Positions 3,351 to 38,121 are shown, counted from the stretch's first letter. The stretch: 64,000 nucleotides of DNA from Actinomycetes bacterium (GCA_031362415.1 JANLSK010000056.1:24814-88813), one strand, 5' to 3'. Numbers and translations are program-made. Notes: a model not told the origin generated them from the letters alone.

Positions 3351-3388
3351 AATTTCGGACTATCGCGATGATTGCGCAGTAGCTGCGG
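3351..3388. repeat. Left terminal inverted repeat of the IS
   Basis: aatttcggactatcgcgatgattgcgcagtagctgcgg matches the reverse complement of 4392-4441 in three blocks. Confidence 0.65.
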
Positions 3389-3391
3389 GAC

Positions 3392-4390
3392 GTGGTGGGA
3401 TGGGCGATGGCGAAACGGGAGCCGTGGCGGGTCGAGCCCGGGTTCGTGCTGGGTGGGCGGCATCATCCGCGCTCGGGTGGGGAGTTCGCGGCGTGGTTCT
3501 CCGACGAGGATGCGGCGGCGGCCTGGATCGCCGCGGTGCGCTGGGTCGACGGGGTCACCTGCCCCCGATGTGGGCTCGAGCTACCGGTGTCGGCGCCGGC
3601 GCAGGGGAAGAGCGGGTGGTGTGGATCGTGTCGCCGGGCATTCTCGGTCACCTCGGGCACCGTGCTCGGCCACACGAAGTTGCCTCTGCGAACGTGGCTG
3701 ACCGTGGCCTGGATGATGACCGAAGACGGTGCGGGGGTGCCGGCGACCGCGGTGCAACGGGCGCTCGGCGTCAGCTACGGCACGGCCTGGCACCTGCTCC
3801 ACAAGCTGCGATCGGTCATGGCGCAAGCGGCCAGCCCCCCGCTCGGTGGCGCCGTGGAGGTCGACGATGTGTTCCTGGGCGGTGTCAAGTACGACAGCGC
3901 CGCCGATCGCGACGATGGCGTGAGGACGCTTGTGGCCATCGCCGTCGAGTGCGTACCGGGGCGTCGCGACTCGACGGGGAGAACGCGCATCGCCCGTATC
4001 CCCAACCGTTCCGCAGCGAGCCTCCGCGAGTTCCTCACTGCCAACGTCGCGCCGGGCACGACGGTCTTGACCGACCGGTGGGCCGCCTACCGGGGGGCCT
4101 GTGCCGGTCGCTACGACCACCGTCCCAGCTCGCTGGTGAGGGTCGACGAGCACTCGCACACGACGCTGGCCCGGGTGATGAGGGTCGCATCGGCTCTCGA
4201 CCGGTGGATGCTGGACACCCATCAGCGAACCGTCGCCGACGAGCACCTCGGCGCCTATCTCGACGAGTTCGTGTTCCGCATCGACCCGGCAGCCGTCAGA
4301 GCACCCGGCCTGCTCTTCCATGGGCTCGTGACCCGCGTGCTGCACTGGGCGCCCGTTCGTCGGGTCGACGTCATCGGCGGGCGGGCCTGA
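3392..4390 (+). CDS. IS1595-family (ISXO2-like) DDE transposase with N-terminal zinc-ribbon
   Basis: Has CPRCG...CGSCRR zinc-ribbon cysteines, the HTH-like segment ALGVSYGTAWHLLHKLR, and the core motifs VEVDDVFLGG, LTDRWAAY and YLDEFVFR. It is full length (~330 aa). The alternative ATG at 3407 is possible. Confidence 0.85.
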   Translation: MVGWAMAKREPWRVEPGFVLGGRHHPRSGGEFAAWFSDEDAAAAWIAAVRWVDGVTCPRCGLELPVSAPAQGKSGWCGSCRRAFSVTSGTVLGHTKLPLRTWLTVAWMMTEDGAGVPATAVQRALGVSYGTAWHLLHKLRSVMAQAASPPLGGAVEVDDVFLGGVKYDSAADRDDGVRTLVAIAVECVPGRRDSTGRTRIARIPNRSAASLREFLTANVAPGTTVLTDRWAAYRGACAGRYDHRPSSLVRVDEHSHTTLARVMRVASALDRWMLDTHQRTVADEHLGAYLDEFVFRIDPAAVRAPGLLFHGLVTRVLHWAPVRRVDVIGGRA

Positions 4391-15068: not shown

Positions 15069-15086
15069 TTGTGAGCGTGTTCACGA
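15069..15086. promoter_or_regulatory. Candidate Rex operator (ROP) upstream of the b6c operon
   Basis: TTGTGAGCGTGTTCACGA matches 12 of the 14 specified positions of TTGTGAA-N4-TTCACAA. It lies 70 bp upstream of the ATG at 15156. Confidence 0.5.
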
Positions 15087-15155
15087 GCGCCCGGGGCAAC
15101 CGACCCGAGCGCAGAGCACCCTGCGCCGAGATACACACGAGAGGGAGGCGACTCC

Positions 15156-15203
15156 ATGGGGCGATGTGAGCGGGAGAGCGCCGAGGTGGGGTGCCTGCGA
15201 TGA
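15156..15203 (+). CDS. Possible 15-codon upstream ORF (MGRCERESAEVGCLR) coupled to the first operon gene
   Basis: A strong SD (GAGGGAGG, 15141-15148) lies 7 nt before the ATG. Its TGA overlaps the ATG at 15200 (ATGA). Confidence 0.3.
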   Translation: MGRCERESAEVGCLR

Positions 15204-15730
15204 GCACGCTGCTCGCGATCAAGATCGAGATCACCTGGGACACCATCAACCCCGTGCAGTGGTCGGGGCCGGCCACTCGCCTGAACGTCTCGATCATCCT
15301 CCTCGTGCTCTTCGTGGCCGCGTTCATGGGTATCATCAAGCGCAAGCCCAAGCCCGAGACCGAGGCCACGTGGGCCGGCTCGATGGCCTTGGCCGTGCTG
15401 GTGTTCGCCGGCATGATGCTGGGCTACGGCGTGGTTCCCCACGAGTGGCTCACCTATGCCGACACCATCTTGGAGTGGAACGACGACAAGTTCCTCTTCC
15501 AACACACAGACAACGTCCCCACCGACTTCACGCTGCGGGCGCTGCGCGACATCGTCGCCACCGTGATCTACGTGGTCGTGCTCGTCGGTAACGTCGTCAT
15601 GTTCGGCATGTGGCAGAAGCGCCCCACCGCCGCGGCACTGGCCGCCTCCCAGGCCAAGGCCGTCGAGGGTGGCGGCTCCCGTCCCGGTGGCATGTCCCGC
15701 TTCGGCCGTCCCATCACCAAGAAGGCCTGA
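15200..15730 (+). CDS. Hypothetical 3-TM membrane protein, first large gene of the b6c operon
   Basis: Predicted TM helices are VSIILLVLFVAAFMGII, GSMALAVLVFAGMMLGYGVV and IVATVIYVVVLVGNVVMFGMW. No family was recognised. An in-frame GTG at 15191 is also possible. Confidence 0.6.
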   Translation: MSTLLAIKIEITWDTINPVQWSGPATRLNVSIILLVLFVAAFMGIIKRKPKPETEATWAGSMALAVLVFAGMMLGYGVVPHEWLTYADTILEWNDDKFLFQHTDNVPTDFTLRALRDIVATVIYVVVLVGNVVMFGMWQKRPTAAALAASQAKAVEGGGSRPGGMSRFGRPITKKA

Positions 15731-15737
15731 GCGCCTC

Positions 15738-16160
15738 ATGGCCCGGTCCGACGCCAACCCGCCGATGCCCGAGTTCTCCTCGGCGTATCACCTCCAGGAG
15801 GTCGACCCGTCGTGGTTGACCCAGGCGGTGAAGCCCAAGCAGTTCCTGCACATTGATCAGCAGGAATGCATCATGTGCGAGGGCTGTGTCGACATCTGCC
15901 CGTGGAAGTGCATCCACATGCTCTCGGTCGATGCCATCGAGGGCGCGGTCAACACCGATCGGCCCGGCGACGATCCGGCCGACACCGTGTTCTTCGTGGT
16001 GGACGAGGACGTGTGCACGCGCTGCGCACTGTGCGTCGACCGCTGCCCGACCGGTGTGATCATCCTGGGCAAGACCGTCGCCGGTGGCGTGGGCACGGTC
16101 AAGGGCGATCCGCACCAGCGAGACAACAACCACGGCTACGCCTACGGCCTGCGGTTCTAA
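15738..16160 (+). CDS. 2x[4Fe-4S] dicluster ferredoxin-domain protein (no signal peptide)
   Basis: Carries CIMCEGCVDICP and CTRCALCVDRCP. It lies 7 bp after the previous gene and 11 bp before the cytochrome b6-like gene. Confidence 0.8.
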   Translation: MARSDANPPMPEFSSAYHLQEVDPSWLTQAVKPKQFLHIDQQECIMCEGCVDICPWKCIHMLSVDAIEGAVNTDRPGDDPADTVFFVVDEDVCTRCALCVDRCPTGVIILGKTVAGGVGTVKGDPHQRDNNHGYAYGLRF

Positions 16161-16171
16161 GGGGGACCTGG

Positions 16172-16945
16172 GTGGCGAACGGAACTGGCGACGGGCTCAA
16201 GACCAAGATGCTTGAGCAGTCGGAGAAGATGAAGGCATCACAGGCCTGGGGCGCGATCTTCCGCCCCGGCTCGGTGTTCCGCAAGGGGTACACCGACAGC
16301 CCCCGAAACCGGTCGTACGTGATCATGAACAGCGTGCTCTACCACCTCCACCCCGTAAAGGTGAAGCGCCACGCGGTCAAGGTCTCCTACACCCTGTGCC
16401 TGGGTGGCCTGTCGTTCTTCTTGTTCATCCTGCTCACGGTCACGGGCATCTTCTTGATGTTCTTCTACCGACCGACCGCCGCCCAGGCGTGGGACGACGT
16501 GAAGACCCTCGAGACGGCCGTCACCTTCGGCTCGCTGGTGCGCAACATGCACCGATGGGCCGCGCACCTCATGGTGCTGTCGGTGTTCTTGCACATGGCC
16601 CGGGTCTTCTACCACGGGGCGTACAAGCCGCCTCGCGAGTTCAACTGGGTGATCGGCGTCATGCTGCTCATGCTCACCCTGTTGCTCTCGTTCACCGGCT
16701 ACCTGCTGCCCTGGGACCAGTTGGCCCTGTGGGCGGTCACGGTGGGCACGAACATGATGGGCTACACGCCGGTCTTCGGTCGAGAGGTGCGCTTCGTGCT
16801 CCTCGGCGGTAAGGAGATCGACTCCCCGACGTTGTTGCGCTGGTACGTCCTCCACGTCTTGATGCTGCCCTTCGTCATCGTCATCTTCATGGCGATCCAC
16901 TTCTGGCGAGTCCGCAAGGACGGCGGCATCTCCGGTCCTCTGTGA
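16172..16945 (+). CDS. qcrB: Cytochrome b6-like subunit (N-terminal 4-helix cytochrome b) of a Rieske/cyt b complex
   Basis: The haem-ligand His pairs lie in VRNMHRWAAHLMVLSVFLHMARVFYHG and WYVLHVLMLPFVIVIFMAIHFW. The C-terminus RKDGGISGPL is as in b6. YTLCLGG aligns with b6 FYCLGG, the haem ci cysteine. The start is GTG 16172 (SD GGGGGA) or ATG 16208. Confidence 0.85.
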   Translation: MANGTGDGLKTKMLEQSEKMKASQAWGAIFRPGSVFRKGYTDSPRNRSYVIMNSVLYHLHPVKVKRHAVKVSYTLCLGGLSFFLFILLTVTGIFLMFFYRPTAAQAWDDVKTLETAVTFGSLVRNMHRWAAHLMVLSVFLHMARVFYHGAYKPPREFNWVIGVMLLMLTLLLSFTGYLLPWDQLALWAVTVGTNMMGYTPVFGREVRFVLLGGKEIDSPTLLRWYVLHVLMLPFVIVIFMAIHFWRVRKDGGISGPL

Positions 16946-16993
16946 GGCCGGTCACGGTGTCTCTGTTCATGCGACCCTTCCTGGGAGCAGGCA

Positions 16994-17902
16994 ATGGCTG
17001 AAGTTCCCGAACATCTCCTCCAACGCAGTCGAGAGCGCCGCAAGGCGCTTGGCCTCGACGTCCCCGGTGACGAGGGCGGCGTGGCTCCGCCCGAACCGGA
17101 TCCGAGCGCCGAGGCCCTGGCGACTGAGGCCCCGGCGGCAGGTGCTGTCGCGTCGGCGGCGTCCGACGTGACCCCGGTGGCAGCCTCCTCGGAGTCGGAG
17201 GCCGTGGCGGCTGCCGCGCCGGCAGCCGCGTCAGCAGCACCGGCCGAGGGCGCGAGCAAGATCCCGGCGCACCTGCTGGAGCGGTCGAAGAAGCGGAAGG
17301 TTGGTGCCACGGCGGGCGCGTCCGCAGGCGGCGGTGGCAGCGCGGTGGCCACGGCTGCGGCGGCCACGGCGGTGGCGGCTCCGCCGGCCACGGCCACGGG
17401 CCCCGGCGGGCACACCCAGCGCCTGCTCACGGTGGTCAAGGCCGGCTCGATCCAACAGACCAAAGCCGACCCGGTCGACAAGGTTCACGTTTGGCCGCAC
17501 CTGCTGGTCATGGAGTTCACCGCCATGTTGTTGCTCATGGCGTTGCTCACGGTGTTCTCGGCCATCGTGCGCGCACCCCTCCTGGAGCTCGCCGACTTCA
17601 ACCGCACTCCCAACCCGTCCAAGGCCCCCTGGTACTTCCTCGGTCTCCAAGAGCTCCTCACCATGTTCCACCCCATGGTGGCCGGCGTCACCATTCCAGG
17701 TGTGGCTCTGGGGTTGCTCGGCGTGGCCCCGTTCATCGACAAGACCACGTCGAACAAGCCGTCCGATCGCAAGTTCGCCATCTGCATCTTCACCCTCTTC
17801 ATGATGTTCTGGGCCATTCTCGTGATCATCGGCTCGTTCTTCCGCGGCGAAGGCTTCAACTTCGTGTTCCCGTGGGAGTCGGGACTGTTCTTCGACCTGT
17901 GA
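16994..17902 (+). CDS. Subunit-IV-like protein (C-terminal cytochrome b domain) with long Ala-rich N-terminal extension
   Basis: Three TM helices carry the P(E)WY-type motif APWYFLGLQELL. The ~150-aa N-terminal low-complexity region holds two copies of a P-x-HLL-x-RS-x-x-R-K/R motif. Confidence 0.8.
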   Translation: MAEVPEHLLQRSRERRKALGLDVPGDEGGVAPPEPDPSAEALATEAPAAGAVASAASDVTPVAASSESEAVAAAAPAAASAAPAEGASKIPAHLLERSKKRKVGATAGASAGGGGSAVATAAAATAVAAPPATATGPGGHTQRLLTVVKAGSIQQTKADPVDKVHVWPHLLVMEFTAMLLLMALLTVFSAIVRAPLLELADFNRTPNPSKAPWYFLGLQELLTMFHPMVAGVTIPGVALGLLGVAPFIDKTTSNKPSDRKFAICIFTLFMMFWAILVIIGSFFRGEGFNFVFPWESGLFFDL

Positions 17903-17907
17903 TGCCC

Positions 17908-17986
17908 GCACCCGTGACGCCTGAGACGACTGTGACGCCCCTGTGACACCCGTGACGACTGTGATGCCTGAGACGACTGTGAGAGC
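17908..17986. repeat. Intergenic GTGA-rich repeat cluster with three exact copies of GACGACTGTGA
   Basis: The 11-mer occurs at 17925-17935, 17954-17964 and 17972-17982, inside the 137-bp spacer between the subunit IV and Rieske genes. Confidence 0.85.
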
Positions 17987-18039
17987 CGTTGCACTGTCGT
18001 GCACCGCTGCACGCAGCGCACGGCACAGAGGAGCCTGAG

Positions 18040-18906
18040 ATGGAAGCTGCCGACGTCCTGCTCATCGCCATCCCCGTGGTGATCATCCTCGCCGCCGTGG
18101 TGCTCATCGCCACGAGCCGTCGCCGTGACACCGGTGCCACCCTGCACGCCGAGGCCCGCCGTCGCGACCGTCGTAAGCCGGCCTACGCGCCCGGAACGAT
18201 GAGCGAGTCCGACGTGACCGCGGCTGCTCGCGACCGTTCCGACGCTTCGCGAGAGCTCGTCTCCGCCGCCGCCGGCACCGTGGCCACCCGAGGTACGGCT
18301 CTGGCCCGGCGCGACCCCGACGAGGTCGCGGTGAGCCGGCGTCAGTTCTTCAACCGGGGCATCGTGGGCATGATGGGCCTCGGCCTGGGCGGCTTCGGCG
18401 CCGCCTCGGTGGCGTTTCTCTGGCCGGGTCTTTCGGTGGGAGGATTCGGTTCGCAGGTGAAGACGCCGCTGTCGCTCGACGACATCAAGGCCGAGATCCT
18501 CGGCAAGCGGGCGCCGTTCTATGTGCCTGAGGCCCGCTCCTACCTTGTGATCTACCCCCAGGACGCCGAGACCATCGAAGCGGCCCGGGCCGTCTACAAG
18601 CCCCGGATCGTCGAGAGCATGGAGCAGCTCGGCATCGCCGCGCTGTACCAGAAGTGCGTCCACCTGGGCTGTCGGGTGCCGTGGTGCGCGTCGTCGCAGT
18701 GGTTCGAATGCCCGTGCCACGGCTCGAAGTACAACAAGGTCGGTGAAAAGCGCGGCGGACCGGCGCCTCGCGGACTCGACCACTGGCCCGTCGAGCTCAA
18801 CGACGACGGCACGGTCACCATCGACACCGGCGGCGCGGTGTTCATTGGTCCGGTGATCGGCACCGACACCATCGCCCAGCAAGCCGAGGGTCCGCCGTGC
18901 GTGTGA
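18040..18906 (+). CDS. qcrA: Rieske [2Fe-2S] subunit
   Basis: Cluster boxes are CVHLGCRV and CPCHGSKY. A twin-arginine-like SRRQFFNRG precedes a TM helix, and there is an extra N-terminal TM helix. ATG 18040 follows an SD GAGGAG. Confidence 0.9.
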   Translation: MEAADVLLIAIPVVIILAAVVLIATSRRRDTGATLHAEARRRDRRKPAYAPGTMSESDVTAAARDRSDASRELVSAAAGTVATRGTALARRDPDEVAVSRRQFFNRGIVGMMGLGLGGFGAASVAFLWPGLSVGGFGSQVKTPLSLDDIKAEILGKRAPFYVPEARSYLVIYPQDAETIEAARAVYKPRIVESMEQLGIAALYQKCVHLGCRVPWCASSQWFECPCHGSKYNKVGEKRGGPAPRGLDHWPVELNDDGTVTIDTGGAVFIGPVIGTDTIAQQAEGPPCV

Positions 18907-18946
18907 ACCCCGTAGCCCGTCGCCAACCCGTCACCCCGAGGCCACC

Positions 18947-19999
18947 GTGCTCAAGACCACGCTGATCGTCCTCAACATCGTCGTCGTCGTCGGCCTCATC
19001 GGCGTGATCGTCGGCGCGTCGGTGGCCAAGTCCAAGCGCACCACCACCCCGGCCAACCTGGCGCCGCACTACGCCGACGACGTGCTCGAGAATCAGCACC
19101 TCTCGCGGGTGCTGGGCTGGGCGCTGCTGATGGTGGCCATCGTGGCCATTGCGCTGCCCGCCTACTGGTTGCTGATCCCCGAGATCCAGTCGCGCCACAG
19201 CGACGCCTTCGGCGAGCGGGCCGTGGCCCAGGGCGCAGCGGCGTTCCAGTCGACTGAGATCGACCCCCTGGCCTTGGGCTGCGCCGACTGCCACGGCGCC
19301 AAAGGCGAGGGCGGGGCGGCCACGTACGTGTACGACGATCCGATCACCGACCGCAAGTACAGCTTGGCCTGGCAGGCGCCGCCGCTCGACACCGTGATGC
19401 TGCGCTTTCCCCGTGAGCAGGTGGCCAACCTCATCATCTACGGCCGCCCGGGATCGCCCATGCCCGCCTGGGGAATCGAAGGCGGAGGGCCGGTCAACAC
19501 CCAGGGCGTCGAAGACCTGCTGGCGTTCATCGACTCGATCCAGATCACGCCGGCCGCGGCCCAGGCCCGGGCTCTCGAACAGCTCGAGACGGCCCGGAAG
19601 GCCAACCCCGATGCCAGCGACGGCGAGCTGTTGTTCAACCTCAACTGCGCGCGCTGCCACACCCAGGGCTGGTCGATTGCGGCGGCGTACGCCAGCGCGA
19701 GTCAGCCCGACGGTCAAGGGGGTGCCGGCCAGCCCTTGCCCATGATTCCCGGGGGCGGGGCCTACGGTCCGTCCCTGCTCGACGGTCGGGTCGTGCGCCA
19801 GTTCCCTGCTGTCGAAGACCACGTGAGCTTCATCGAGAGCGGTTCGGAGTTCCAGGTGGGTTACGGCGTGCGGGGCATCGGCTCGGGCGGCATGCCCGGG
19901 TATGCCGATCTGCTCACCGAGGAGCAGATCGCCGCCATCGTCGAGTACGAGCGCACGTTGACCACACCGGCCGACGCCTCCGCGGAGGCCGGCGCATGA
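18947..19999 (+). CDS. Membrane-anchored dihaem cytochrome c (QcrC-like)
   Basis: Two CxxCH motifs (CADCHG, CARCHT) with candidate Met ligands (SPMPAWG, GGMPGY). There are two N-terminal TM helices and a GTG start. Confidence 0.85.
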   Translation: MLKTTLIVLNIVVVVGLIGVIVGASVAKSKRTTTPANLAPHYADDVLENQHLSRVLGWALLMVAIVAIALPAYWLLIPEIQSRHSDAFGERAVAQGAAAFQSTEIDPLALGCADCHGAKGEGGAATYVYDDPITDRKYSLAWQAPPLDTVMLRFPREQVANLIIYGRPGSPMPAWGIEGGGPVNTQGVEDLLAFIDSIQITPAAAQARALEQLETARKANPDASDGELLFNLNCARCHTQGWSIAAAYASASQPDGQGGAGQPLPMIPGGGAYGPSLLDGRVVRQFPAVEDHVSFIESGSEFQVGYGVRGIGSGGMPGYADLLTEEQIAAIVEYERTLTTPADASAEAGA

Positions 20000-20078
20000 C
20001 CTCCACCGCCAGGGTCCGAGACCACCACATCTCCTGTATACCCAGCTACCTCAGCAACCTCAGCCGGACGGTGATCCT

Positions 20079-20885
20079 GTGAGCATCTCCGCGATCTTGG
20101 CCCAAGCCCACGGCGGCGGGGGCGACGGCTTGTGGGACCCCAAGATCAAGGGGTACCTCACCGTCATCATGGCGGTCGGGCTGTTCTGCGGCTCGGTGTA
20201 CCTCCTCATGTGGACCAACATGGGCTCGTCGCAGGCCTTCCTCATTGCCTCCTCGGCCATCTTCGGCATCATGATGATCCTCTCGAGCCTGTGGGTCACC
20301 GGCCAGTTCCACCAGGCGTACAAGGGGCGGCAGCCTTCCTGGAAGCTCGAGGAGATCCTCCCTGCCGGAGCGGCCTACGCCGACTCGAGCGTGGGCCAGA
20401 TCGCCAACCTCGACCCCGTGGCATCGAAGGCCACCGCCCTCGACGCCGGCCAGATCCGGCCCGACCTCGAGTCGATCATCGCCGGCGACGACGCCGACGA
20501 GGCCGTCAAGCTCTTCACCAAGGTCGAGGACTTCGAGGTCGTCACCACCTACAAGGTGGGCGGCGAGCGCAAGATGCCCATCTGGTGGTCGAACAAGCCG
20601 GCGTTCGCCGCCATCGAGGTGTGCACCCACACCGTGAAGGCGCCCGACTTCGACGTCGTCAACGACGTGTTCCGGCCCGAGTGCGATCCCACGATCCCCA
20701 ACCAGGTCGTGATCCTCTATCGTGACCTCGGCTCCGATCGCCTCTGGTCGGGGATGGTGTTCTTCGCCTCCAGCCTCATGTTCGGCGGAACCCTGTACCT
20801 GCTCTACGTCCTCGAGATCCGCCAGCGTCAGCAGAAGGCGGCCCTGGTGCTCGCCTCCTCCGACGCCGCGCCCGCCAAGGTCTAG
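20079..20885 (+). CDS. Hypothetical 3-TM membrane protein with a ~150-aa extracytoplasmic domain
   Basis: Same strand, 79 bp after the cytochrome c gene. It has high GC3 and clear TM segments. No family was recognised. Confidence 0.6.
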   Translation: MSISAILAQAHGGGGDGLWDPKIKGYLTVIMAVGLFCGSVYLLMWTNMGSSQAFLIASSAIFGIMMILSSLWVTGQFHQAYKGRQPSWKLEEILPAGAAYADSSVGQIANLDPVASKATALDAGQIRPDLESIIAGDDADEAVKLFTKVEDFEVVTTYKVGGERKMPIWWSNKPAFAAIEVCTHTVKAPDFDVVNDVFRPECDPTIPNQVVILYRDLGSDRLWSGMVFFASSLMFGGTLYLLYVLEIRQRQQKAALVLASSDAAPAKV

Positions 20886-20894
20886 GAGATCCCG

Positions 20895-21131
20895 ATGCGC
20901 AGCCGCTTCCGCTCGCTCCTGGCCCTCGTCGTGCTCGTGATGGCGTTCGTGGTCTCGTTCGCCTCGCCGGCCATGGCGGAGACCAAGCCCCAGCTCATCG
21001 ACGGCTCCGAAGACGGCGCACTGGCCTTCGTGGCCTTCGCCGCCATGTGCATGGTCTTCATAGGCCTGCTCTTCGCAGTCGACAAGGTCCGCCAGCGGGC
21101 CGAGGACGAGCGCGACAAGAAGGACGCCTAA
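20895..21131 (+). CDS. Small secreted/membrane protein (signal peptide plus C-terminal TM helix)
   Basis: 78 aa with a cleavable-looking signal (FASPAMAE), the TM helix LAFVAFAAMCMVFIGLLFAV and a basic tail. It lies 9 bp after the previous gene. Confidence 0.55.
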   Translation: MRSRFRSLLALVVLVMAFVVSFASPAMAETKPQLIDGSEDGALAFVAFAAMCMVFIGLLFAVDKVRQRAEDERDKKDA

Positions 21132-21157: not shown

Positions 21158-22438
21158 CTACAGGCTGTCGGCCACCTCGGTGGCGGCGGCCAGCGTGAGG
21201 TCGATGTCGGCGTCGGTGTGGGCCAGGCTCACGAACAGGGTCTCGAAGGCACTCGGCGCGAAGTACACGCCTCGATCGAGCATCCCGTGGAAGAACCGGC
21301 CGTAGCGCTCGGCGTCGGCGCCTTGGGCCTGGCCGTAGTCGGCCACCGGTGCGTCGGCGAAGAACAGCCCGGTGAGCGTGGTGACCCGGGGCACCTGCAC
21401 CGCCAGCCCGGCCGCGGTGAGCGCGCTCCTCAGACCATCGGCGAACCGGCGCGCCGACGCCTCGAGGCGGGTGTAGGACGCGTCGTCGAGCTCGGCCAGC
21501 ACGGCCAGGCCCGCGGCCGTCGCCAACGGATTCCCCGACAGCGTGCCCGCCTGGTACACGGGGCCCTGCGGAGCAAGACAGCCCATCACGTCGGCGCGGC
21601 CGCCGAACGCGGCCAGCGGGAGCCCGCCGCCCGCCACCTTGCCGAAGCACGACAGGTCGGGCGCAACGGCGAACAGGCCCTGGGCCCCGCCGAGCGCGAC
21701 GCGAAACCCCGTGATCACCTCGTCGAAGATCAACAGCGTCCCGGTGCTGGTGCACAGCTCACGCAGATGGGCGAGGAACCCGTCGGCCGCAGGCACCAGG
21801 CCCATGTTCCCGGGCACCGGCTCCACGATCAACGCTGCGATCCTCGTGCCGTGAGCCGCCCACACGGCGTCGACGGCCGCCACGTCGTTCCACGGCACCA
21901 CCAGCGTGTCGCCCACCGCGGCTGCCGGCACTCCGGCCGTCGACGGGAGACCGAAGGTGGCGATCCCCGAGCCCGCTGCGGCCAGGAGGGCGTCGGCGTG
22001 GCCGTGGTAGCAGCCGGCGAACTTCACGATGGCGTCTCGCCCGGTGAAGCCCCGGGCCAGTCGCAGCGCCGACATGGTGGCTTCGGTGCCTGACGACACC
22101 AGCCGCACCCGTTCCATCGACGACACCCGCTCGGCGATGGCCTCGGCGAGCATCACCTCGCGCTCGGTCGGGGCGCCGAACGACGTGCCGTCGACGGCGG
22201 CACGGGTCACGGCCTCCACCACGGCCGGATGGGCGTGGCCCAGGATCGACGCGCCCCACGACTGCACGTAGTCGACGAGCCGGCGCCCGTCGGCCGTCTC
22301 CAGGTACGCCCCGGAACCCCTGGCCACGAAGAACGGCTCACCGCCGACGCCACCGAAGGCCCGCACGGGCGAGTTCACGCCGCCGGGGATGATGCGCTGG
22401 GCGCGTTCGAACAACTCGTGCGACCGGGGATCGGTCAT
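21158..22438 (-). CDS. hemL: Glutamate-1-semialdehyde 2,1-aminomutase
   Basis: [21 protein letters not shown] and the class-III aminotransferase body. ATG 22438 was chosen; the ORF extends further upstream. Confidence 0.9.
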
Positions 22439-22475
22439 CGGGTCAGGTCCATGGCGGTCTCGGTGGATTCGGTGG

Positions 22476-23456
22476 TCATCCGTTGAGCTCCTCGGCGATC
22501 TCGCGGGCCAGGTAGGTGAGGATGATGTCGGCGCCGGCCCGCTTGATGGAGACCAGGTGCTCCCAGGCAACCTGGTGCCCGTCGATCCAGCCGTTGGCGG
22601 CCGCCGCCTTGAGCATCGAGTACTCGCCGCTCACGTGGTAGGCGGCCAGGGGGACGTTGACGACCGAGCGCACCTCGGCGATGACGTCGAGATACGACAG
22701 GGCCGGCTTGACCATCACCATGTCGGCGCCCTCGTCGATGTCGAGCAGCACCTCGTCGATGGCTTCGCGGGCGTTGGCGGGGTCCATCTGGTAGCCCCGG
22801 CGATCGCCGAATTGCGGGGCGCACTCGCCGGCGTCGCGGAACGGGCCGTACTCGGCCGAGGCGTACTTGACCGCGTACGACAGCACGAGGCGGTCGTCGA
22901 AGCCGGCATCGTCGAGCGCTCCCCGGATGGCGCCGACCATCCCGTCCATCATGCCCGAGGGGGCGATGACGTCGGCCCCGGCGGTGGCCTGGGCCACACA
23001 GATCGAGCGGAGGCGGTCGAGGGTGGCGTCGTTGTCGACCTCGCCGGCGGCGGTGAGGATGCCACAGTGCCCGTGGTCGGTGTACTCGTCGAGGCAGGTG
23101 TCGACCATGAGCACGAGCGAGTCGCCCACCTCGTCGCGCAGGTTCCGCAGCGCCACCTGCACGACCCCGACACCATCGACGGCCGCCGAACCCCGCCCGT
23201 CCTTGGCCGCGGGGATACCGAAGAGGATGACGGCCGGCACCCCGAGATCGCACAGGGCTCGCACCTCCTTGCGGAGGCTCTCCTGGGTGTGCTGCACCAC
23301 CCCGGGCATCGAGAGGATGGGCTCGGGCCCGGTGAGGCCCTCCTTCACGAAGAGGGGAGCGACGAGATCGTCGACCCTCACCGAGTGCTCGGCGACGAGG
23401 CGGCGCAACGCCGGGGTGCGCCGGAGCCGGCGGAGACGGCGGGTGGGGAAGGTCAT
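22476..23456 (-). CDS. hemB: Porphobilinogen synthase (delta-aminolevulinate dehydratase)
   Basis: [15 protein letters not shown] at the N-terminus, followed by [11 protein letters not shown] and [11 protein letters not shown]. Confidence 0.9.
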
Positions 23457-23460
23457 GGCG

Positions 23461-24603
23461 TCATCGTAACGGCCGGGCCCTCGGACCCAGGAGGCCGACC
23501 GCGGCGGCGACGACCCCGGGAATCGTGTGCGGATCGGCCTCCACGGCCACGGTGAGGCCGGCGTGGCGGGCCGCGGTCGAGGTGATCGGCCCGATCGTCA
23601 CGATCGGCGGGTGCGGACTCGGGAGGGAGCCGCCCAGGGCCGTCGCGACCACCTGGCACCAGCCAGTGACCGTGGAGGCCGAGGTGAACGTGACGGCGTC
23701 GACGGCACCGGTGCTCGACAACGCCTCGACGGCCTCGGGCGACGGTCGCGCGGCGGTGGTCTGATACACGGGCAGCACCTCCACCGAGTAGCCCAGGCGG
23801 GCCAGACCCTCGGGCAGCACGTCGCGAGCCACGAGCGCCCGAGCGATGAGCACCCTCGGTGCGCCCGGGTCGGCGGTGTCGCCTGGGCCGGCGGTGTCGG
23901 CGGTGTCGGCGGGGTCAGTAGGGTCCTCGGGGCCGCCGGCACCCGTGGGGCCCGTGGGGCCCGTGGGGCCAGGGGTGCCGGCGGACTGAGCAGGAGGGAA
24001 GGCCGCCAGCAGGGCCTCGGCCACGAACCGCTCGGGGACCAGATCGGCGCCGACACCGTGCCGGGCGAGCGCCCTCGCGGTTCCCGGACCGATGACGGCG
24101 ATCCGGCAGCCGGCGAGAGCCCGGGCATCGCGGCCTTGGCCCTCGAGCCCGATCGAGAAGAACCGCTCGACGCCGTTGGGCGAGGTGAAGATGATCCAGG
24201 CGTACTCGGCCAGGTCGGCCGGGACGACGAAGTCGATGTCCGAGACGACGATCGTGGGAACCACCAGCGTCGAGGCGCCCAGCCCGGTCAGCGCCCTCAC
24301 CAGCTCCGACGCCTGATCGCTCGACCGTGTCACGGCGATCACGCGCCCGTACAGCGGCCAGCGGCCCAACAGCGCGTCGTCGACCAGGAGACCGTGGGAA
24401 TCGTCGGTGGTGTCCGGGGTGCCAGGGGTCCCAGGGGTCCCGGGGGTGCCGGCCCGTCCCGTGAGTTCCCGTCCCGCGTGTGCCCGCCGGACGACGACCG
24501 TCCGACCGAGATCGTGGAGCCGACGGGCGTGCACGGCCCAGGGCCCGGGTTGGCGGGGATCGCCCGGGGCCTCCACCTCGACCTTGACGGGCGGCTCGGT
24601 CAC
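23461..24603 (-). CDS. hemD: Uroporphyrinogen-III synthase with N-terminal extension and low-complexity inserts
   Basis: HemD body motifs are RVIAVTRSSDQ, IIFTSPNGV, IAVIGPGTARAL and VTFTSASTV. GTG 24603 overlaps the hemC stop (GTGA). Inserts are GTPGTPGTPGTP and GPTGPTGPTG (9-bp repeat at 23942-23968). A TTG start at 24369 is the alternative. Confidence 0.75.
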   Translation of the reverse strand: MTEPPVKVEVEAPGDPRQPGPWAVHARRLHDLGRTVVVRRAHAGRELTGRAGTPGTPGTPGTPDTTDDSHGLLVDDALLGRWPLYGRVIAVTRSSDQASELVRALTGLGASTLVVPTIVVSDIDFVVPADLAEYAWIIFTSPNGVERFFSIGLEGQGRDARALAGCRIAVIGPGTARALARHGVGADLVPERFVAEALLAAFPPAQSAGTPGPTGPTGPTGAGGPEDPTDPADTADTAGPGDTADPGAPRVLIARALVARDVLPEGLARLGYSVEVLPVYQTTAARPSPEAVEALSSTGAVDAVTFTSASTVTGWCQVVATALGGSLPSPHPPIVTIGPITSTAARHAGLTVAVEADPHTIPGVVAAAVGLLGPRARPLR

Positions 24604-25505
24604 TGACCGGAGGCCGCCAGCGCCGCGTCGGCCTGCACGGTCGCGGCCACCGCCCGGCCCGCCTCGCTGGGCACGAGCGCTGCAGCGCGTCGGCGTACCA
24701 CCCACGATCCGTCGTGCGCGGCCAGGAGCGCCTCGATCAGGACCCGGCCCGAGCCCGTGGGATCGAGCACGGCCAGGGCCCCGCACGGCAGATCGCACCC
24801 GCCCCCCAGTTCGGCGAGGAAGGCCCGCTCGGCGGTGACCGCGGCCCGGGCGTCGGGCCGGTCGATCGCGCTGCACCATTCCACGGTCTGCTCATCGTCG
24901 CGGCGGCATTCGACGGCGACAGCGCCCTGGCCCACCTGCGGGAGCATCACCGACGGCTCGAGCAACTCGGTGAGATGCTCACTCCAGCCCAGACGGATGA
25001 ACGCCGCCGCGGCCACGACGACAGCGTCGAAGTCGGCGGCCCGGGCCAGGCGGGCGGCCATGTTTCCTCGCAGCTCGTGGAACACGATGTCGGGCCTGAT
25101 CGCGGCGAGCTGAGCGCGCCGGCGCACCGAACCCGTGGCGACCGTCCCACCATGAGGGATGTCGTCGAGGGTCGAGCCCACGAGGGCGTCCCTCACGTCC
25201 TCACGCTCGGGCACGGCGCCCAGCACCAGCCCCGGTGCCAGATGTGACGGCAGGTCCTTGGCTGAGTGCACGGCCACGTCGGCTCGGCCGTCGAGCAGGG
25301 CTTCCTCGACCTCCTTGGCGAACACACCGGTCCCGCCCAGAGCCGAGATCGGGACGTCGGTGCTGCGGTCGCCGACGGTCGAGACCACGACCAGCTCGGT
25401 CTCGACGCCGCAGGTCTCGGTGAGCCGGCGGGCGACCAACCCGGCCTGCCACCGGGCCAACGGGCTCCCACGGGTGGCGATACGGACCCTCGGCGGGATG
25501 CTCAC
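24600..25505 (-). CDS. hemC: Hydroxymethylbilane synthase (porphobilinogen deaminase)
   Basis: Motifs are RIATRGSPLARWQA and DVAVHSAKDLP. GTG 25505 overlaps the hemA stop (GTGA). Confidence 0.9.
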   Translation of the reverse strand: MSIPPRVRIATRGSPLARWQAGLVARRLTETCGVETELVVVSTVGDRSTDVPISALGGTGVFAKEVEEALLDGRADVAVHSAKDLPSHLAPGLVLGAVPEREDVRDALVGSTLDDIPHGGTVATGSVRRRAQLAAIRPDIVFHELRGNMAARLARAADFDAVVVAAAAFIRLGWSEHLTELLEPSVMLPQVGQGAVAVECRRDDEQTVEWCSAIDRPDARAAVTAERAFLAELGGGCDLPCGALAVLDPTGSGRVLIEALLAAHDGSWVVRRRAAALVPSEAGRAVAATVQADAALAASGQ

Positions 25506-26758
25506 AGGTCGAACAGGGCCGTGAGCAGGTCGCGCCATGCGGCGTGGTCGTCAGCACTGGCGGCCTTCAGACGCATGGTGGGCTCGTGGAGCAGCTTGTT
25601 GACGATGCCCCTGGTCAAAGCCTCGATGGCCTCACGCGAGCGGGGGTCGAGCTCCGAGAACCGGTGGGCGTAGCGGTCGAGCTCGGCGAGGCGGATCTCC
25701 TCGGCCCGCTCGCGCAACGCCACCACGAGCGGAGCGGCTTCGCGGGCGACCCGATCTTCCCGAAAGCGGGCCAGCTCGTTGCCGATGATCTCGCGGGCCC
25801 GCGGAAGCTCGGCCCGGCGGGTGTCGAGGACCCGGTCGGCGTGCGACTCGAGATGGCTCATGTCGATGACGGTCACCCCGTCAACGCCCGCCGCGCCCGG
25901 ATCGACGTCGCGGGGCACGGCGATGTCGATGATCAGCAACGGACGAGACGGTCGTCCGGCCATGGCCGACGCGATGTCGTCGACGGTGACCACGAAGTCG
26001 GGCGCGCCGGTGGACGTGAGGAGCACGTCGGCCCGGGCGATCACCGATCGAAGCTGGTCGAGGCCGATCCCGCGGCCGCCGATCCGGGCGGCTAGCTCCA
26101 CGGCCCGCTCGGGGGATCGGTTGGCGACGGTGACCTCGCCGGCGGCCGCGTCGGCCAGCGCGGCGGCCATCCCCTCGCCCATCACGCCGGCCCCGACGAG
26201 CACGATGTTGGCGCCGGCGAGCGATCCGAGCAGGGATGAGGCCACGGCGACCGCGGTGGTCGAGATGGAGACCGAGCCCCGGCCGATGGCGGTTTCGGTG
26301 CGGATGCGCTTGCCCACCTCGACCGCGTGCCGGAACGTGCGCGAGAGGCTCTGGAGTGCCGTCCCCTCCCGCTCGGCCAGCAGCCATGCGTCGCGGACCT
26401 GACCGAGCACCTCCGACTCGCCGATGATCATCGAGTCGAGGCCGGCGGCCACGGCGAACAGGTGCGAGACCGCAGCGTCGTCGTGGTAGGTGTAGAGGTG
26501 CGAGGTGAGCGTGTTGGTGTCGCAGCCGGCCTGGGTGGCGAGGAACTCGACGGCGTCTTGCACCCCGGGATGGAACTTCGTACAGCGGGCGTACACCTCG
26601 GTCCGGTTGCACGTGGAGAGCACGACGGCCTCGGCCAGGTGCTCACGCTCGGCCAGGTCGTGGAGCGCCTTGGGCACGAGCGACGGGTTGATCGCCAGGC
26701 GCTCGAGCAGGTTGAGCGGTGCGCTGTTGTGATTGAGACCCACGACGACGAGCGACAT
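25502..26758 (-). CDS. hemA: Glutamyl-tRNA reductase
   Basis: Motifs are VVGLNHNSAPLNLLERL, LSTCNRTEVY and VGAGVMGE. Confidence 0.9.
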   Translation of the reverse strand: MSLVVVGLNHNSAPLNLLERLAINPSLVPKALHDLAEREHLAEAVVLSTCNRTEVYARCTKFHPGVQDAVEFLATQAGCDTNTLTSHLYTYHDDAAVSHLFAVAAGLDSMIIGESEVLGQVRDAWLLAEREGTALQSLSRTFRHAVEVGKRIRTETAIGRGSVSISTTAVAVASSLLGSLAGANIVLVGAGVMGEGMAAALADAAAGEVTVANRSPERAVELAARIGGRGIGLDQLRSVIARADVLLTSTGAPDFVVTVDDIASAMAGRPSRPLLIIDIAVPRDVDPGAAGVDGVTVIDMSHLESHADRVLDTRRAELPRAREIIGNELARFREDRVAREAAPLVVALRERAEEIRLAELDRYAHRFSELDPRSREAIEALTRGIVNKLLHEPTMRLKAASADDHAAWRDLLTALFDL

Positions 26759-26767
26759 GTCGGCTCC

Positions 26768-27517
26768 TCACCCCACCGCTTCGACGGTGGTGCCGACCGA
26801 GACGGAGGTGCCGACAGCGACGGTGGTGCCGACAGCGAAGCTGTCGAGGCGGCGCCGATGGTAGAAGGACAGGATCTGCAGTTCGATGGCCAGATCGACG
26901 TCACGCACCAGCACCTCGGCAGGCACGCTCAAGACGGTGGGCGCGAAGTTCAGGATCGACGTGACCCCGGCTCGCACGAGGCGGTCGGCCACCGATTGCG
27001 AGGCCGGTGCCGGCACGGCCAGGACGGCGATGGCCACGGCCCGCTCGTGAACGATCCGGTCGAGCTCGTCGAGATGCTCGATCGGCCGGTCGGCGACCAT
27101 GGTCCCCACCTTGGCGGGATCGCTGTCGAGCAGCGCGGCGATGCGAAAGCCTCGGGCCGAGAACCCGCCGTAGTTGGCCAGGGCCTGACCCAGGTTCCCG
27201 ATCCCGACGATGGCGACGGCCCAGTCGTTGGTGAGCCCCAGCTCCTGGGAGATCTGGTACAGGAGGAACTCGACGTCGTATCCGACACCGCGGGTGCCGT
27301 ACGAGCCGAGATAGCTGAGATCCTTGCGGACCTTGGCGGCGTTGACGCCAGCCAGCTCGGCGAGGCGATCGGAGGAGATGGTCGTCGTCTTGTGTTCGAC
27401 CGACGCCAGGAGCACACGGAAGTAGACGGGCAGCCGAGCGACGGTGGCCTCGGGGATTTTCCGACGGGTGCGCTCACCGGAGACCCGGCTGGCGAGGCCA
27501 CCTCGCTCCACGGTCAC
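26768..27517 (-). CDS. rex: Redox-sensing transcriptional repressor Rex
   Basis: Motifs are IPEATVARLPVYFR, SSDRLAELAGVNAAKVRKDLSYLGSYGTRGVGYDV and the Rossmann segment IVGIGNLGQALANY. It is the first gene of the hem operon, as in Streptomyces. Confidence 0.9.
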   Translation of the reverse strand: MTVERGGLASRVSGERTRRKIPEATVARLPVYFRVLLASVEHKTTTISSDRLAELAGVNAAKVRKDLSYLGSYGTRGVGYDVEFLLYQISQELGLTNDWAVAIVGIGNLGQALANYGGFSARGFRIAALLDSDPAKVGTMVADRPIEHLDELDRIVHERAVAIAVLAVPAPASQSVADRLVRAGVTSILNFAPTVLSVPAEVLVRDVDLAIELQILSFYHRRRLDSFAVGTTVAVGTSVSVGTTVEAVG

Positions 27518-27598
27518 GAACCAGCTCGGGTCCGGTCGGGGCAGTCGCCGACGTGTCGCTCCGGGTAACGGCTGACCATCGCCGAGATATTAGTGCGC

Positions 27599-33210: not shown

Positions 33211-33635
33211 CGTGCCTCCCGATTCGGTCCCGTGACGGTCGGCCCCGAAGACGGTCGTCCCGCATGGAAGCCTGAGCGTCAGTGGCAGCCCGAGCGTATC
33301 GACACCCACCCGCTCGGCGCCTCCGAACGCGAACGGGCCCGAGGAACCATCGGACCACTCCGCACTTCCCCGAACGGAGTGATCGTCCTGCACCTCGGGC
33401 CTCGTCGTTGGCAGTTCCGTCGAGGCTTGTGGGCACCCGCCGGAACAGCGGACCGGACCCTAGCCGTGACCCTCGGAGCCGACAAGGGGGCATGTGACGT
33501 TTGCCCGAAGAGCCGGGAAACGGTGCGCCCCGACGGCGTCTCGACGGCACCTGACCGTCCGTCTCGGGGCCCACCGCGTGCCTCGTCGTCCCGCCCCGTC
33601 GCCCCATGCGGTCGGGCCGGGAACCAGTCGTCACA

Positions 33636-34901
33636 ATGGATGGCGTGGATGTGAGCGGGCAGCGATGGGACGTGCTCGTCGTCGGCGGCGGACCGGCCGG
33701 AGCCGCAGCGGCGTACTGGTTGGCGACGGCCGGGCATCGGGTCCTCGTCGTCGAGAAGAAGCGCTTCCCTCGGGAGAAGACCTGCGGTGACGGGCTCACG
33801 CCGCGAGCCGTCCACCAACTCGAGGAGATGGGGCTGGCGTCGGGGCTGGTGCCGTTCCACCGCTACGACGGGCTCCGGGCCGTGGCCCACGGCATCACCA
33901 TCGAGCTGAAGTGGCCCGAGCACCCGGTGTTCCCGTCGTACGGCTACGTGGTCCGACGTCGCGATCTCGATCAGATGGTCGCCGATCGGGCCGTCGAGGC
34001 CGGAGCGGTGTGCTGGCAGGAAGCCGAGGCCACGGCCCCGCTCCTCGAATCGGGGCTGCTCGCCGGGGCGATCGTCAAGCGCAAGGACCGGGGGACGGTC
34101 GAGGAGGTGCGGGCCCGCTACGTGGTCGTGGCCGACGGGGCCAACTCCCGCTTCGGACGGGCCCTGGGCACCAGTCGCGACCGGCGCCGCCCCCAAGGGA
34201 TGGCCATTCGCGGCTACTTCGCCAGCCCCCTCCACGACGAGCCCTGGATCGAGTCTGCCCTCGACGTTCGTGATCGCTCGGGTGCCTCCCTTCCCGGGTA
34301 CGGCTGGATCTTCCCGGTCGGCGACGGGACGGTCAACGTCGGCCTCGGCCTGCTGTCCACGTTCAAGGGCTGGAAGGACGTCAACACCACCCACCTGTTG
34401 AGCGAGTTCGCGGCCACGGCGCCGGAGTACTGGGGCATCTCGCCCGAGACGGCCTGCGGCGCGCCGACCGGGGGCCGTCTGCCCATGGGGGGCTCGGTGC
34501 ACCCCAAGCTCGGGCCCACCCATCTCGTGGTGGGCGACGCCTCCGGGGCCATCAACCCCTTCAACGGCGAGGGCATCGACTACGCCTACGAGACCGCCCG
34601 TGCCGCGGCCCGGTGCATCGACGACGCGCTCACGAGCGGTTCGGGGCTGGCGCTGCAGCAGTACCAGCGGTGGCTCGACGACGAGTACGCGATCTACTTC
34701 AAGGTGGCCCGGGCCTTCGCCCACGTGATCGGGAACCCGGCGCTCATGCGCGAGCTCACCCGGGTCGGGATGCAGTCGCGCACGCTCATGGAGTGGGTGC
34801 TGCGGATCATGGCCAACCTCTTGCGGCCCGACGAGCTGGGCGCCGCCGAGGCCGTCTATCGCAGTGTCGCCGCCCTGGCCCGGCTGGCCCCCGTCGACTG
34901 A
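33636..34901 (+). CDS. Geranylgeranyl reductase-family FAD-dependent oxidoreductase
   Basis: Motifs are WDVLVVGGGPAGAAAAYWLA, KTCGDGLTPRA and GDASGAINPFNGEGI. It lies directly upstream of nuoA. Confidence 0.8.
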   Translation: MDGVDVSGQRWDVLVVGGGPAGAAAAYWLATAGHRVLVVEKKRFPREKTCGDGLTPRAVHQLEEMGLASGLVPFHRYDGLRAVAHGITIELKWPEHPVFPSYGYVVRRRDLDQMVADRAVEAGAVCWQEAEATAPLLESGLLAGAIVKRKDRGTVEEVRARYVVVADGANSRFGRALGTSRDRRRPQGMAIRGYFASPLHDEPWIESALDVRDRSGASLPGYGWIFPVGDGTVNVGLGLLSTFKGWKDVNTTHLLSEFAATAPEYWGISPETACGAPTGGRLPMGGSVHPKLGPTHLVVGDASGAINPFNGEGIDYAYETARAAARCIDDALTSGSGLALQQYQRWLDDEYAIYFKVARAFAHVIGNPALMRELTRVGMQSRTLMEWVLRIMANLLRPDELGAAEAVYRSVAALARLAPVD

Positions 34902-34995
34902 GCCGTCTCGGGCGGGCCCTGGCCTCCAGGCGATCGCGTGCTGTGGCCGGCATCGATGTCGATGGTTCACTCGACAGGGGTGAGACTTCGCTAGC

Positions 34996-35484
34996 GTGGT
35001 CTCGATGGACGCATACCTTCCGCTTGTGGTGATGGTGATCCTGGGACTCCTGTTCGCGGCGGGGTCGTTCGTGGCGTCCACCTGGGCTGCGCCGTCCAAG
35101 CCCACGACGGCCAAGCGTGCGCCCTACGAGTGCGGGATCGTGCCCGAGACCGAGCCGGCCGAGCGGTTCCCGGTTCGCTTCTACCTCGTGGCCATGATCT
35201 TCATCGTCCTCGACATCGAGATCGTCTTCCTCTACCCGTTCGCCGTGATCCTCAGCGACCTCGGTGCCTTCGGGTTGGTGGAGATGGGGATCTTCGTGCT
35301 CGCGGTGGTGGTCGCGTTCGGCTACGTCCTGGCCTCGGGCGCCCTCGAATGGGGTCCGGTGCGCATCGCCGAGCGTTTTGCCACGCCCGTCCTGCGGGCC
35401 CAGGGCATGCCGCGCCCTCCCGAGCCCGACGCTGCCGCCGACGGCGAGAACGACGCTGCGCCGCAACCGGGAAGGGCGGCCTAG
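34996..35484 (+). CDS. nuoA: NADH-quinone oxidoreductase subunit A
   Basis: Three TM helices with the motifs PYECG and FDIEIVFLYP. It is the first of 14 co-directional nuo genes and has a C-terminal extension. Confidence 0.9.
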   Translation: MVSMDAYLPLVVMVILGLLFAAGSFVASTWAAPSKPTTAKRAPYECGIVPETEPAERFPVRFYLVAMIFIVLDIEIVFLYPFAVILSDLGAFGLVEMGIFVLAVVVAFGYVLASGALEWGPVRIAERFATPVLRAQGMPRPPEPDAAADGENDAAPQPGRAA

Positions 35485-35487
35485 GGC

Positions 35488-36018: not shown

Positions 36019-36130
36019 GGTTCGGGGCGCGAGCGACGGGGTGCCATCGCCGGGCGGCGCAGTACCAGGGCACCACGGGCACCACCCGGAGAACACAGCG
36101 ACAGCAGAACCACTCAGCAGGCGGGGGAAC

Positions 36131-36715: not shown

Positions 36716-36723
36716 GGAAGCCC

Positions 36724-38109: not shown

Positions 38110-38121
38110 GGGTCTGCAGAC

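Follow-up and report, generated by a model that had tools for sequence, protein, structure and literature searches.

A split b6-type Rieske/cytochrome b operon carrying a dicluster ferredoxin gene in Acidimicrobiia-type actinobacteria

Split cytochromes b that bear a CxGG motif are known from the APWY clade, which includes Actinobacteria such as the acidimicrobial Ilumatobacter coccineum and none of whose members has been characterized (Kao & Hunte 2014, PMC4122944). Dibrova et al. describe this clade as subfamily G, in which short cytochromes b correlate with CxGG, and an NAD(P) oxidoreductase has been noted for the subfamily in general (PMC5600118). Covalent haem ci has been demonstrated in the b6c complexes of Firmicutes (PMC4122944), and in Kuenenia the GltD/NfnB-like NAD(P) oxidoreductase of the anammox b6-like complexes co-migrates with the complex (PMC12954380). 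Here we describe an operon of eight genes in the same direction (positions 15191-21131) in a 64,000-nucleotide stretch of an Actinomycetes bacterium (GCA_031362415.1, JANLSK010000056.1:24814-88813), hereafter the window. We consider it probable that the operon specifies a menaquinol:cytochrome c Rieske/b6 complex of an Acidimicrobiia-type actinomycete, in which a ferredoxin on the cytoplasmic face would wire the n-side haems. Both the split CxGG/APWY cytochrome b of Actinobacteria and b6-type complexes coupled to an iron-sulfur (FeS) protein are already known; judged from sequence comparison, the window complex appears to be an undescribed minimal variant of the FeS-coupled b6-type Rieske/cytochrome b complex, of class-wide occurrence.

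The best matches of the window b6 among Protein Data Bank (PDB) chains were the cytochromes b6 of cyanobacteria, algae and plants (phmmer, E ~1e-47), and its alignment to solved b6 was gapless over 187 residues at ~47% identity. In this alignment C76 fell on Cys35 (ytlCLGG over ifyCLGG in 2zt9, 6rqf, 1vf5, 7r0w and 1q90). C76 and the four His ligands of the b haems were invariant in 81/81 actinobacterial b6 homologues, and the C-terminus RKDGGISGPL was likewise invariant across them. An earlier note on this DNA had taken the CLGG cysteine for the one that binds haem ci; alignment to solved b6 served as the check for non-homology, and the gapless alignment together with the invariance of the residue upheld it as the positional homologue of Cys35. 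This equivalent would be the site of covalent attachment of haem ci in the window b6. PF00033 and PF00032 were assigned to two neighbouring genes, one for a four-helix cytochrome b and one for a separate, three-helix subunit IV (SUIV). The latter reads SKAPWYFLG, and KAPWY was found in 73/73 relatives. Since SUIV bears the Qo motif APWY and accompanies a short b6 with CxGG, we place the window complex, by motif rather than by tree, in the APWY clade/subfamily G. The cysteine is patchy within this clade, with T[LFY]CLGG in Actinomycetota, TWCMGG in Planctomycetota and G, R, W or Y in its place elsewhere, and unsplit forms of cytochrome b also occur there.

A b6 alignment scan of one genome per GTDB species yielded at least 599 confirmed relatives, and synteny was counted at the best 80 of these loci by tblastn of the eight window proteins. 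All 80 were from Actinomycetota, mostly Acidimicrobiia (Microthrix, Ilumatobacter, Iamia, Ca. Actinomarina and sponge symbionts), with one metagenome-assembled genome (MAG) of Egibacteraceae among them; we take these hosts to be aerobic heterotrophs. Matches were obtained for b6 at 80 loci, the ferredoxin at 78, SUIV at 77, the three-transmembrane (3-TM) protein p1 at 72, the Rieske protein at 71, cytochrome c at 70, the membrane protein m1 at 59 and the membrane protein m2 at 3. The order p1-ferredoxin-b6-SUIV-Rieske-cytochrome c-m1 was constant, in ~78/80 species-level genomes, and the genes missing from the count were mostly at contig ends. Thus the ferredoxin, the 3-TM gene and m1 are syntenic with the split cytochrome b in nearly all of the 80 genomes, contrary to the lack of synteny that would have refuted the earlier note. 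Together with the split b6-type core and the invariant cysteine, this makes a ferredoxin-coupled complex the best reading of the operon. The proposal of the earlier note, a ferredoxin-coupled b6c-type complex encoded by a split b6-type operon in an actinobacterial background, is supported to that extent, but its specific coupling to haem ci is not (see below). Taken together, these findings suggest that the operon is class-wide in Acidimicrobiia-type actinobacteria.

The ferredoxin is the second most conserved gene product of the cluster (35-81% identity, compared with 33-60% for the Rieske protein and 27-45% for cytochrome c). All 8 cysteines of its two CxxCxxCxxxCP motifs were invariant in 79/79 sequences, and conservation extended to its N-terminal (DANPPMPEF...VKPKQFLHIDQ) and C-terminal (GDPH.R..HGYAYG.RF) extensions. 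Wherever it was found, its gene lay directly 5' of b6; in the window, 7 and 11 nt separate it from its neighbours. BLASTP aligned it to the C-terminal dicluster domain of flavoproteins encoded beside b6 in sister clusters, at 37-39% identity (E 8e-14 to 1e-17) and across both clusters and the intervening loop. With the window's own NuoI (56524-57108) the identity was 23% (E 1e-5), and the ferredoxin stayed below the NuoI equivalog cut-off (TIGR01971, 40.6 < 113). It thus appears to correspond, as a separate protein, to the dicluster domain at the C-terminus of a GltD-like NAD(P) flavoprotein, and through this homology to represent, in minimal form, an n-side FeS module that recurs in the clade. 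Three apparent ferredoxin-b6 fusion proteins (P0018, P0030 and P0341) were rejected, as their Arg/Pro-rich linkers are out of frame and they stem from frameshifts or errors of gene calling; since they are not true Rosetta-stone fusions, they only confirm that the two genes are adjacent.

These data also bear on whether the ferredoxin is a soluble housekeeping protein that happens to be co-transcribed with an ordinary Q-cycle complex III. Such a role would fit a protein that has no transmembrane segment or membrane anchor, whose core matches generic dicluster ferredoxins (FwdF, MvhB and NuoI/NdhI), and whose structure prediction gave no support for binding. It does not readily explain why the gene keeps one place, flanked by the 3-TM gene and b6, in 78/80 genomes (with gaps of 7-11 nt in the window), why a housekeeping ferredoxin should be conserved more than the Rieske protein or cytochrome c, terminal extensions included, or why it is specifically homologous to a flavoprotein domain at the same position in sister clusters, a homologue of which co-migrates with the complex in Kuenenia (PMC12954380). 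We therefore regard mere co-transcription as unlikely.

The sister clusters were gathered by a metagenome scan seeded with Cys-less sister sequences (80 loci), and their b6 was 50-65% identical to that of the window. Immediately before b6, or before Rieske-b6, there was often a gene for a flavoprotein of 600-680 aa with Fer4_20 and Pyr_redox_2 (FAD/NAD(P)) domains and a C-terminal 2x[4Fe-4S] domain that ended just before b6 (L088, L092, L124, L138, L148, L154 and L159). Small stand-alone ferredoxins were found elsewhere (L143, L165 and L162, the last in the order Rieske-ferredoxin-b6). An FeS partner stood beside a Cys-less b6 at L087, L088, L138 and L162, and two Planctomycetota clusters whose b6 has the cysteine had no separate ferredoxin gene. 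As FeS partners accompany both Cys-containing and Cys-less b6, co-occurrence does not tie the FeS module specifically to haem ci, and the specific ferredoxin-haem ci link of the earlier note is not supported on these grounds. In one of the two Planctomycetota clusters (L081 and L082), a 353-aa Rieske protein (L081:6857-7918) bears an N-terminal, cytoplasmic, single-cluster ferredoxin domain (CIVCDAC...ECP) that is unrelated to the window ferredoxin; the Planctomycetota cluster also encodes a HEAT-repeat protein and, by COX2, a multihaem cytochrome c of 1361-1534 aa.

The sister clusters likewise inform on the idea that the ferredoxin, alone or together with the 3-TM protein, serves in biogenesis, be it assembly or a step such as the attachment of haem ci on the n-side, and does not belong to the mature enzyme. 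Outside cyanobacteria and plastids, the attachment of haem ci must act on the n-side by a system that has not been identified (PMC5600118), and in the window both genes precede a b6 whose cysteine is invariant among its relatives. Against such a role, the FeS partners at L087, L088, L138 and L162 lie upstream of b6 proteins without the cysteine, the Planctomycetota clusters with the cysteine have neither gene, and the protein that carries the homologous domain in sister clusters, an NAD(P) flavoprotein, is an enzyme of electron transfer rather than a chaperone. A role in biogenesis is accordingly still less likely, in our judgement, than mere co-transcription.

The N-terminus of the window b6 is longer than that of plastid b6 by ~40 (41) residues, an n-side extension that is shared by the whole clade and contains an LHxHP motif whose His (H58 in the window) is conserved without exception in the wider clade. 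For the anammox complexes, an extra haem b at the b6 dimer interface has been predicted from AlphaFold3 models, with His43 or His62 as the ligand and neutralization by Arg247, or by Arg266 and Lys267 (PMC12954380). The window counterparts of this predicted site are H58, R248 and K249. At L162, which has no loop deletion, the distances from the His of LHxHP to the R and K of WRxRKDGG are 204 and 205, as in Kustd1481. The window b6 might possibly hold a further, His58-ligated haem, a mapping made by residue spacing alone.

Several observations weigh against a ferredoxin that wires the n-side haems. The known CCB maturation proteins for haem ci were not detected. Among sister clusters whose upstream sequence was long enough to judge, approximately half had no FeS gene, and these also keep His58, so that a wire from His58 to the ferredoxin is weakly grounded. 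A flavin or NAD(P) module is missing from the ferredoxin itself, and no gene for a flavin/NAD(P) partner was conserved next to the actinobacterial clusters. An AlphaFold2 model of the ferredoxin, built on a 44-sequence alignment, was unusable (pLDDT 37). Finally, an Ilumatobacteraceae MAG carries a lone, normal-looking b6, 87% identical, between unrelated genes (L011:10001-10720) and without ferredoxin, SUIV or Rieske, perhaps as an orphan paralogue, perhaps through a chimeric assembly.

In the menaquinol:cytochrome c complex that we favour, the ferredoxin would dock on the cytoplasmic face of the b6 dimer and connect a soluble redox partner in the cytoplasm with haems bH and ci on the n-side, and possibly with a further haem ligated by His58; we infer its physical association with the complex, its topology and the direction of electron flow. 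Quinol would be oxidized at Qo, with one electron passing by way of the Rieske protein and cytochrome cc to an oxidase, and the low-potential electron would either reduce menaquinone at Qi (Q cycle) or leave via the ferredoxin. Acidimicrobiia presumably use menaquinone, going by taxonomic descriptions; the window has a geranylgeranyl-reductase-like gene (see below). The Rieske protein has a high-potential signature, with Ser246 in 64/65 homologues and Tyr248 in 65/65, and Ser/Tyr hydrogen-bond donors raise the Rieske potential. Potentials of +303 and +335 mV have been measured for anammox Rieske proteins that share the serine, and in one case the tyrosine as well, and that come from a menaquinone organism; a very low-potential b-haem branch follows from these values (PMC12954380). 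If menaquinone is also the quinone here, the same potential argument would allow bifurcation at Qo to a [4Fe-4S] ferredoxin. Electron exit, by a bifurcation at Qo that yields low-potential reductant, is therefore the direction to which we give a tentative preference over entry from reduced ferredoxin through haem ci to menaquinone, which seems somewhat less likely; a structural or regulatory role of the ferredoxin, or none, makes up the remainder. The more general proposal that in Acidimicrobiia, a globally abundant class, a bound ferredoxin taps the low-potential branch of complex III, whether by bifurcation between O2 and ferredoxin or by the route from ferredoxin over haem ci to menaquinone, is possible, and we put it forward with considerable doubt.

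The Rieske protein has an extra N-terminal transmembrane helix and an RRQFF anchor of the twin-arginine translocation (TAT) type, and RRxF was present in 64/65 homologues. This conserved motif leaves room for a ferredoxin that crosses to the p-side together with the Rieske protein, using the TAT signal of the latter, and acts in the periplasmic high-potential branch; in other TAT systems, FeS partners without a signal are co-exported, the large subunit of arsenite oxidase being a case in point. Three points speak against export: CxxCxxCxxxCP clusters are of low potential and unsuited to a place between Rieske protein and cytochrome c, the homologous domain of sister clusters forms one chain with an NAD(P)-binding flavoprotein, which is necessarily cytoplasmic, and the ferredoxin domain of the Planctomycetota Rieske protein stands N-terminal to the TAT/TM segment, which places it in the cytoplasm. 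We hold export to be very improbable. The cluster motifs CxHxGC..CxCH were present in 65/65 Rieske homologues. Two extra cysteines, C233 in PWC and C304 in a C-terminal PPCV, were also invariant (65/65) and may, beside the cluster ligands and the usual disulfide pair, form a second disulfide. A 288-aa Rieske gene is called in the relative L085.

SUIV has an Ala-rich, cytoplasmic N-terminal extension of ~165 aa that is poorly conserved apart from basic motifs. One such motif, [EK][VI]P[EA]HLLxRSxxRRK, occurs twice in it (aa 7-20 and 93-106; window 16994-17480), and 55/73 actinobacterial homologues have one or two copies of it. Cytochrome c has two CxxCH motifs, CADCH and CARCH.

Pfam and NCBIfam assigned five of the eight proteins (ferredoxin, b6, SUIV, Rieske and cytochrome c; Table 1), in agreement with the domains named in the earlier note. 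The motifs that the note had read in them were all found, namely MHRWAAHLM, LHVLMLPF, RKDGGISGPL, YTLCLGG and PWYFLGLQELL, CVHLGC/CPCHGS and RRQFF, and CADCH and CARCH. The gene coordinates likewise gave the intergenic gaps of 7-137 nt that it had reported. Of its nine open reading frames (ORFs), eight are real genes; the ninth, the upstream ORF (uORF), is not conserved. Synonymous and non-synonymous codon differences were counted against the nearest public relative, GCA_009886115.1, and came to 21/9 for p1, 15/0 for the ferredoxin, 40/4 for b6, 56/18 for SUIV, 62/27 for the Rieske gene, 72/48 for cytochrome c, 42/39 for m1 and 15/9 for m2. Since synonymous changes exceed non-synonymous ones in each, all eight genes are coding and under purifying selection. 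The uORF is the sole 15-codon ORF; position 15069 is not where it begins, and the alternative ATG of p1 is overlapped by its stop. No conserved counterpart was present upstream of the 3-TM gene in 71 relatives, and the uORF is probably a chance occurrence. Comparison of the leader and the whole window with Rfam gave no match, and a promoter/terminator scan was uninformative. The G+C content of the window is 65-70%.

Table 1. Genes of the operon and the upstream ORF, in window coordinates.
Feature	Position	Strand	Remarks
15-codon upstream ORF, MGRCERESAEVGCLR (stop)	15156-15203	+	sequence only; probably not a gene
p1, 179-aa 3-TM membrane protein	15191-15730	+	alternative ATG 15200
Ferredoxin, 140 aa, 2x[4Fe-4S], without signal peptide	15738-16160	+	Pfam Fer4 families
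Cytochrome b6-like subunit, 257 aa, 4 transmembrane helices	16172-16945	+	PF00033, E 1e-46
Subunit IV (SUIV), 302 aa, Qo motif KAPWY	16994-17902	+	PF00032
Rieske [2Fe-2S] protein, 288 aa from ATG 18040; ORF opens 17989	18040-18906	+	PF00355
Dihaem cytochrome c, 350 aa, membrane-anchored	18947-19999	+	two cytochrome c domains
m1, 268-aa membrane protein	20079-20885	+	orphan family
m2, 78 aa, signal peptide and one TM helix	20895-21131	+	orphan

No Pfam, NCBIfam or PDB family was found for p1, m1 or m2, even when PDB sequences were searched with profiles and each member of their alignments was scanned against Pfam, which agrees with the inability of the earlier note to assign them. It had spoken of novel accessory subunits; the ferredoxin is not without precedent, being homologous to a domain of a known anammox-type subunit. 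The conserved residues of p1 are W61, P83, W96, D120, Q142 and a C-terminal S..GRP. As none of them is a His, p1 should be without haem, and a weak Ni_hydr_CYTB match was rejected on the same ground. The p1 gene lay directly upstream of the ferredoxin gene in 72/80 genomes and was not present in the sister clusters examined; p1 appears to be lineage-specific and is a candidate accessory subunit. m1 consists of two N-terminal transmembrane segments, a soluble domain and one C-terminal transmembrane segment, and its 59 matches were 23-49% identical. m2 is called as a 78-aa gene in the close relative GCA_009886115.1; at the 80 more distant loci it was detectable in only three.

The neighbourhood of the operon is respiratory in character, with haem biosynthesis genes and two nuo operons near it. 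Convergent with the operon, on the - strand, lie hemL-hemB-hemD-hemC-hemA and a gene for a Rex-like redox repressor (21158-27589); hemL/hemB was within 10 kb of the b6 cluster at 27-30/80 loci. Two tandem complex-I-type (nuo) sets follow on the + strand (34984-50874 and ~53421-63184), each including NuoC-like and NuoH genes of its own as well as several genes for antiporter-like (Proton_antipo_M) subunits, and they are preceded by a gene for a geranylgeranyl-reductase-like flavoprotein (33555-34901). A gene for an IS1595-family (ISXO2-like) transposase is located at 3383-4390, ~11 kb upstream of the operon.

If our reading is correct, an environmentally dominant actinobacterial class would respire via a b6-type, probably three-haem, ferredoxin-bearing complex III and not via the textbook actinobacterial QcrCAB. 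Electron exchange between ferredoxin and the n-side haems of b6-type complexes is an old question in cyclic flow through b6f, and it stands as a proposal for the anammox complexes, which are difficult to work with. Should a bound ferredoxin tap the low-potential branch, in either direction, the operon would supply a minimal, cultivable, non-photosynthetic model both for the long-debated route from ferredoxin to the n-side of b6f and for quinone-based bifurcation towards low-potential acceptors. Here one protein of 140 aa makes up the whole putative FeS module, and the hosts presumably include cultivable aerobes such as Ilumatobacter and Iamia; purification, haem staining, electron paramagnetic resonance (EPR), cryo-electron microscopy and genetics are realistic.

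With cyanobacterial and plastid b6f the window complex shares the Cys35 equivalent, the RK(D/Q)GGISGPL C-terminus, a separate SUIV and a CxHLGC/CPCHGSxY Rieske protein, whereas b6f has PEWY and cytochrome f in place of the APWY, dihaem cytochrome c and operon-encoded ferredoxin found here. No match to PetG, PetL, PetM or PetN was obtained in the cluster with Pfam/NCBIfam, and the scores fell below those of the b6f equivalogs for b6 (NF002990, 212 < 325) and for the Rieske protein, which matched PetC models weakly (70 < 250). The b6c complexes of Firmicutes (Bacillus QcrABC and heliobacteria) are non-oxygenic and menaquinol-oxidizing, with PDWY or PEWY at Qo and a cytochrome c that is either fused to SUIV or monohaem. 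We know of no ferredoxin gene in their operons. The actinobacterial QcrCAB complex resembles the window complex in its host, its membrane-anchored dihaem cytochrome c and a Rieske protein with extra N-terminal transmembrane helices; its QcrB is not known to have the haem ci cysteine. The scores against its models were low (QcrB, NF050120, 115 < 500; QcrA, NF050121, 25 < 275; QcrC, NF050122, 34 < 200, or 33.6 bits). QcrB is also unsplit, of 535-573 aa, and has PDWY at Qo, in contrast to the split, APWY-type window protein (PMC4122944).

The window b6 scored above the NCBIfam cut-off for Geobacter ExtP (312 > 290), which is of the same APWY-type lineage, and ExtQ fell below its own cut-off (57 < 150). 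No porin, rhodanese, selenocysteine or multihaem Ext genes of an extHIJKLMNOPQS context occur in the window neighbourhood. With this context absent and ExtQ below cut-off, we rejected an ExtP identity (selenite/tellurite reduction) for the window b6. The ExtP name on some database copies (for instance P0008, Acidimicrobiales) is explained by b6 just passing the cut-off, and the naming of b6 as ExtP in public genomes is probably a systematic over-annotation.

With regard to the APWY clade, the statement of the earlier note that it knew of no description of this architecture for Actinobacteria has to be narrowed: the split CxGG/APWY cytochrome b had already been recorded there (PMC4122944), but we found no description of the ferredoxin-bearing operon. 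Our literature search, which took in neither Dibrova 2013 nor the supplement figures of Kao & Hunte, returned no Acidimicrobiia-specific description of this operon, of the homology between its ferredoxin and the flavoprotein C-terminal domain, or of p1, m1 and m2. As far as their consulted portions extend, the surveys of the clade catalogued cytochrome b and Rieske proteins and not the stand-alone ferredoxin, the 3-TM protein, m1, m2 or the class-wide spread. The motif typical of the clade is WCMGG, compared with T[LFY]CLGG here.

The anammox complexes Kuste4569-4574 and Kustd1480-1485 (Kartal 2013; de Almeida 2016; PMC12954380) are also close. Like the window complex, they combine a b6-like cytochrome b bearing the haem cN cysteine with SUIV, a high-potential Rieske protein (in their case in a menaquinone organism), a gene beside b6 for an FeS protein that is a cytoplasmic subunit there and a putative one here, and an N-terminal His and C-terminal Arg/Lys at the spacing of the predicted extra haem b. 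Their FeS subunit comprises Fer4_20, FAD/NAD(P) and dicluster domains, whereas the 140-aa window ferredoxin is the dicluster module only, and their cytochrome is hexa- or octahaem rather than dihaem. Unlike the anammox complexes, the window complex is hosted by Actinomycetota and accompanied by lineage-specific membrane proteins.

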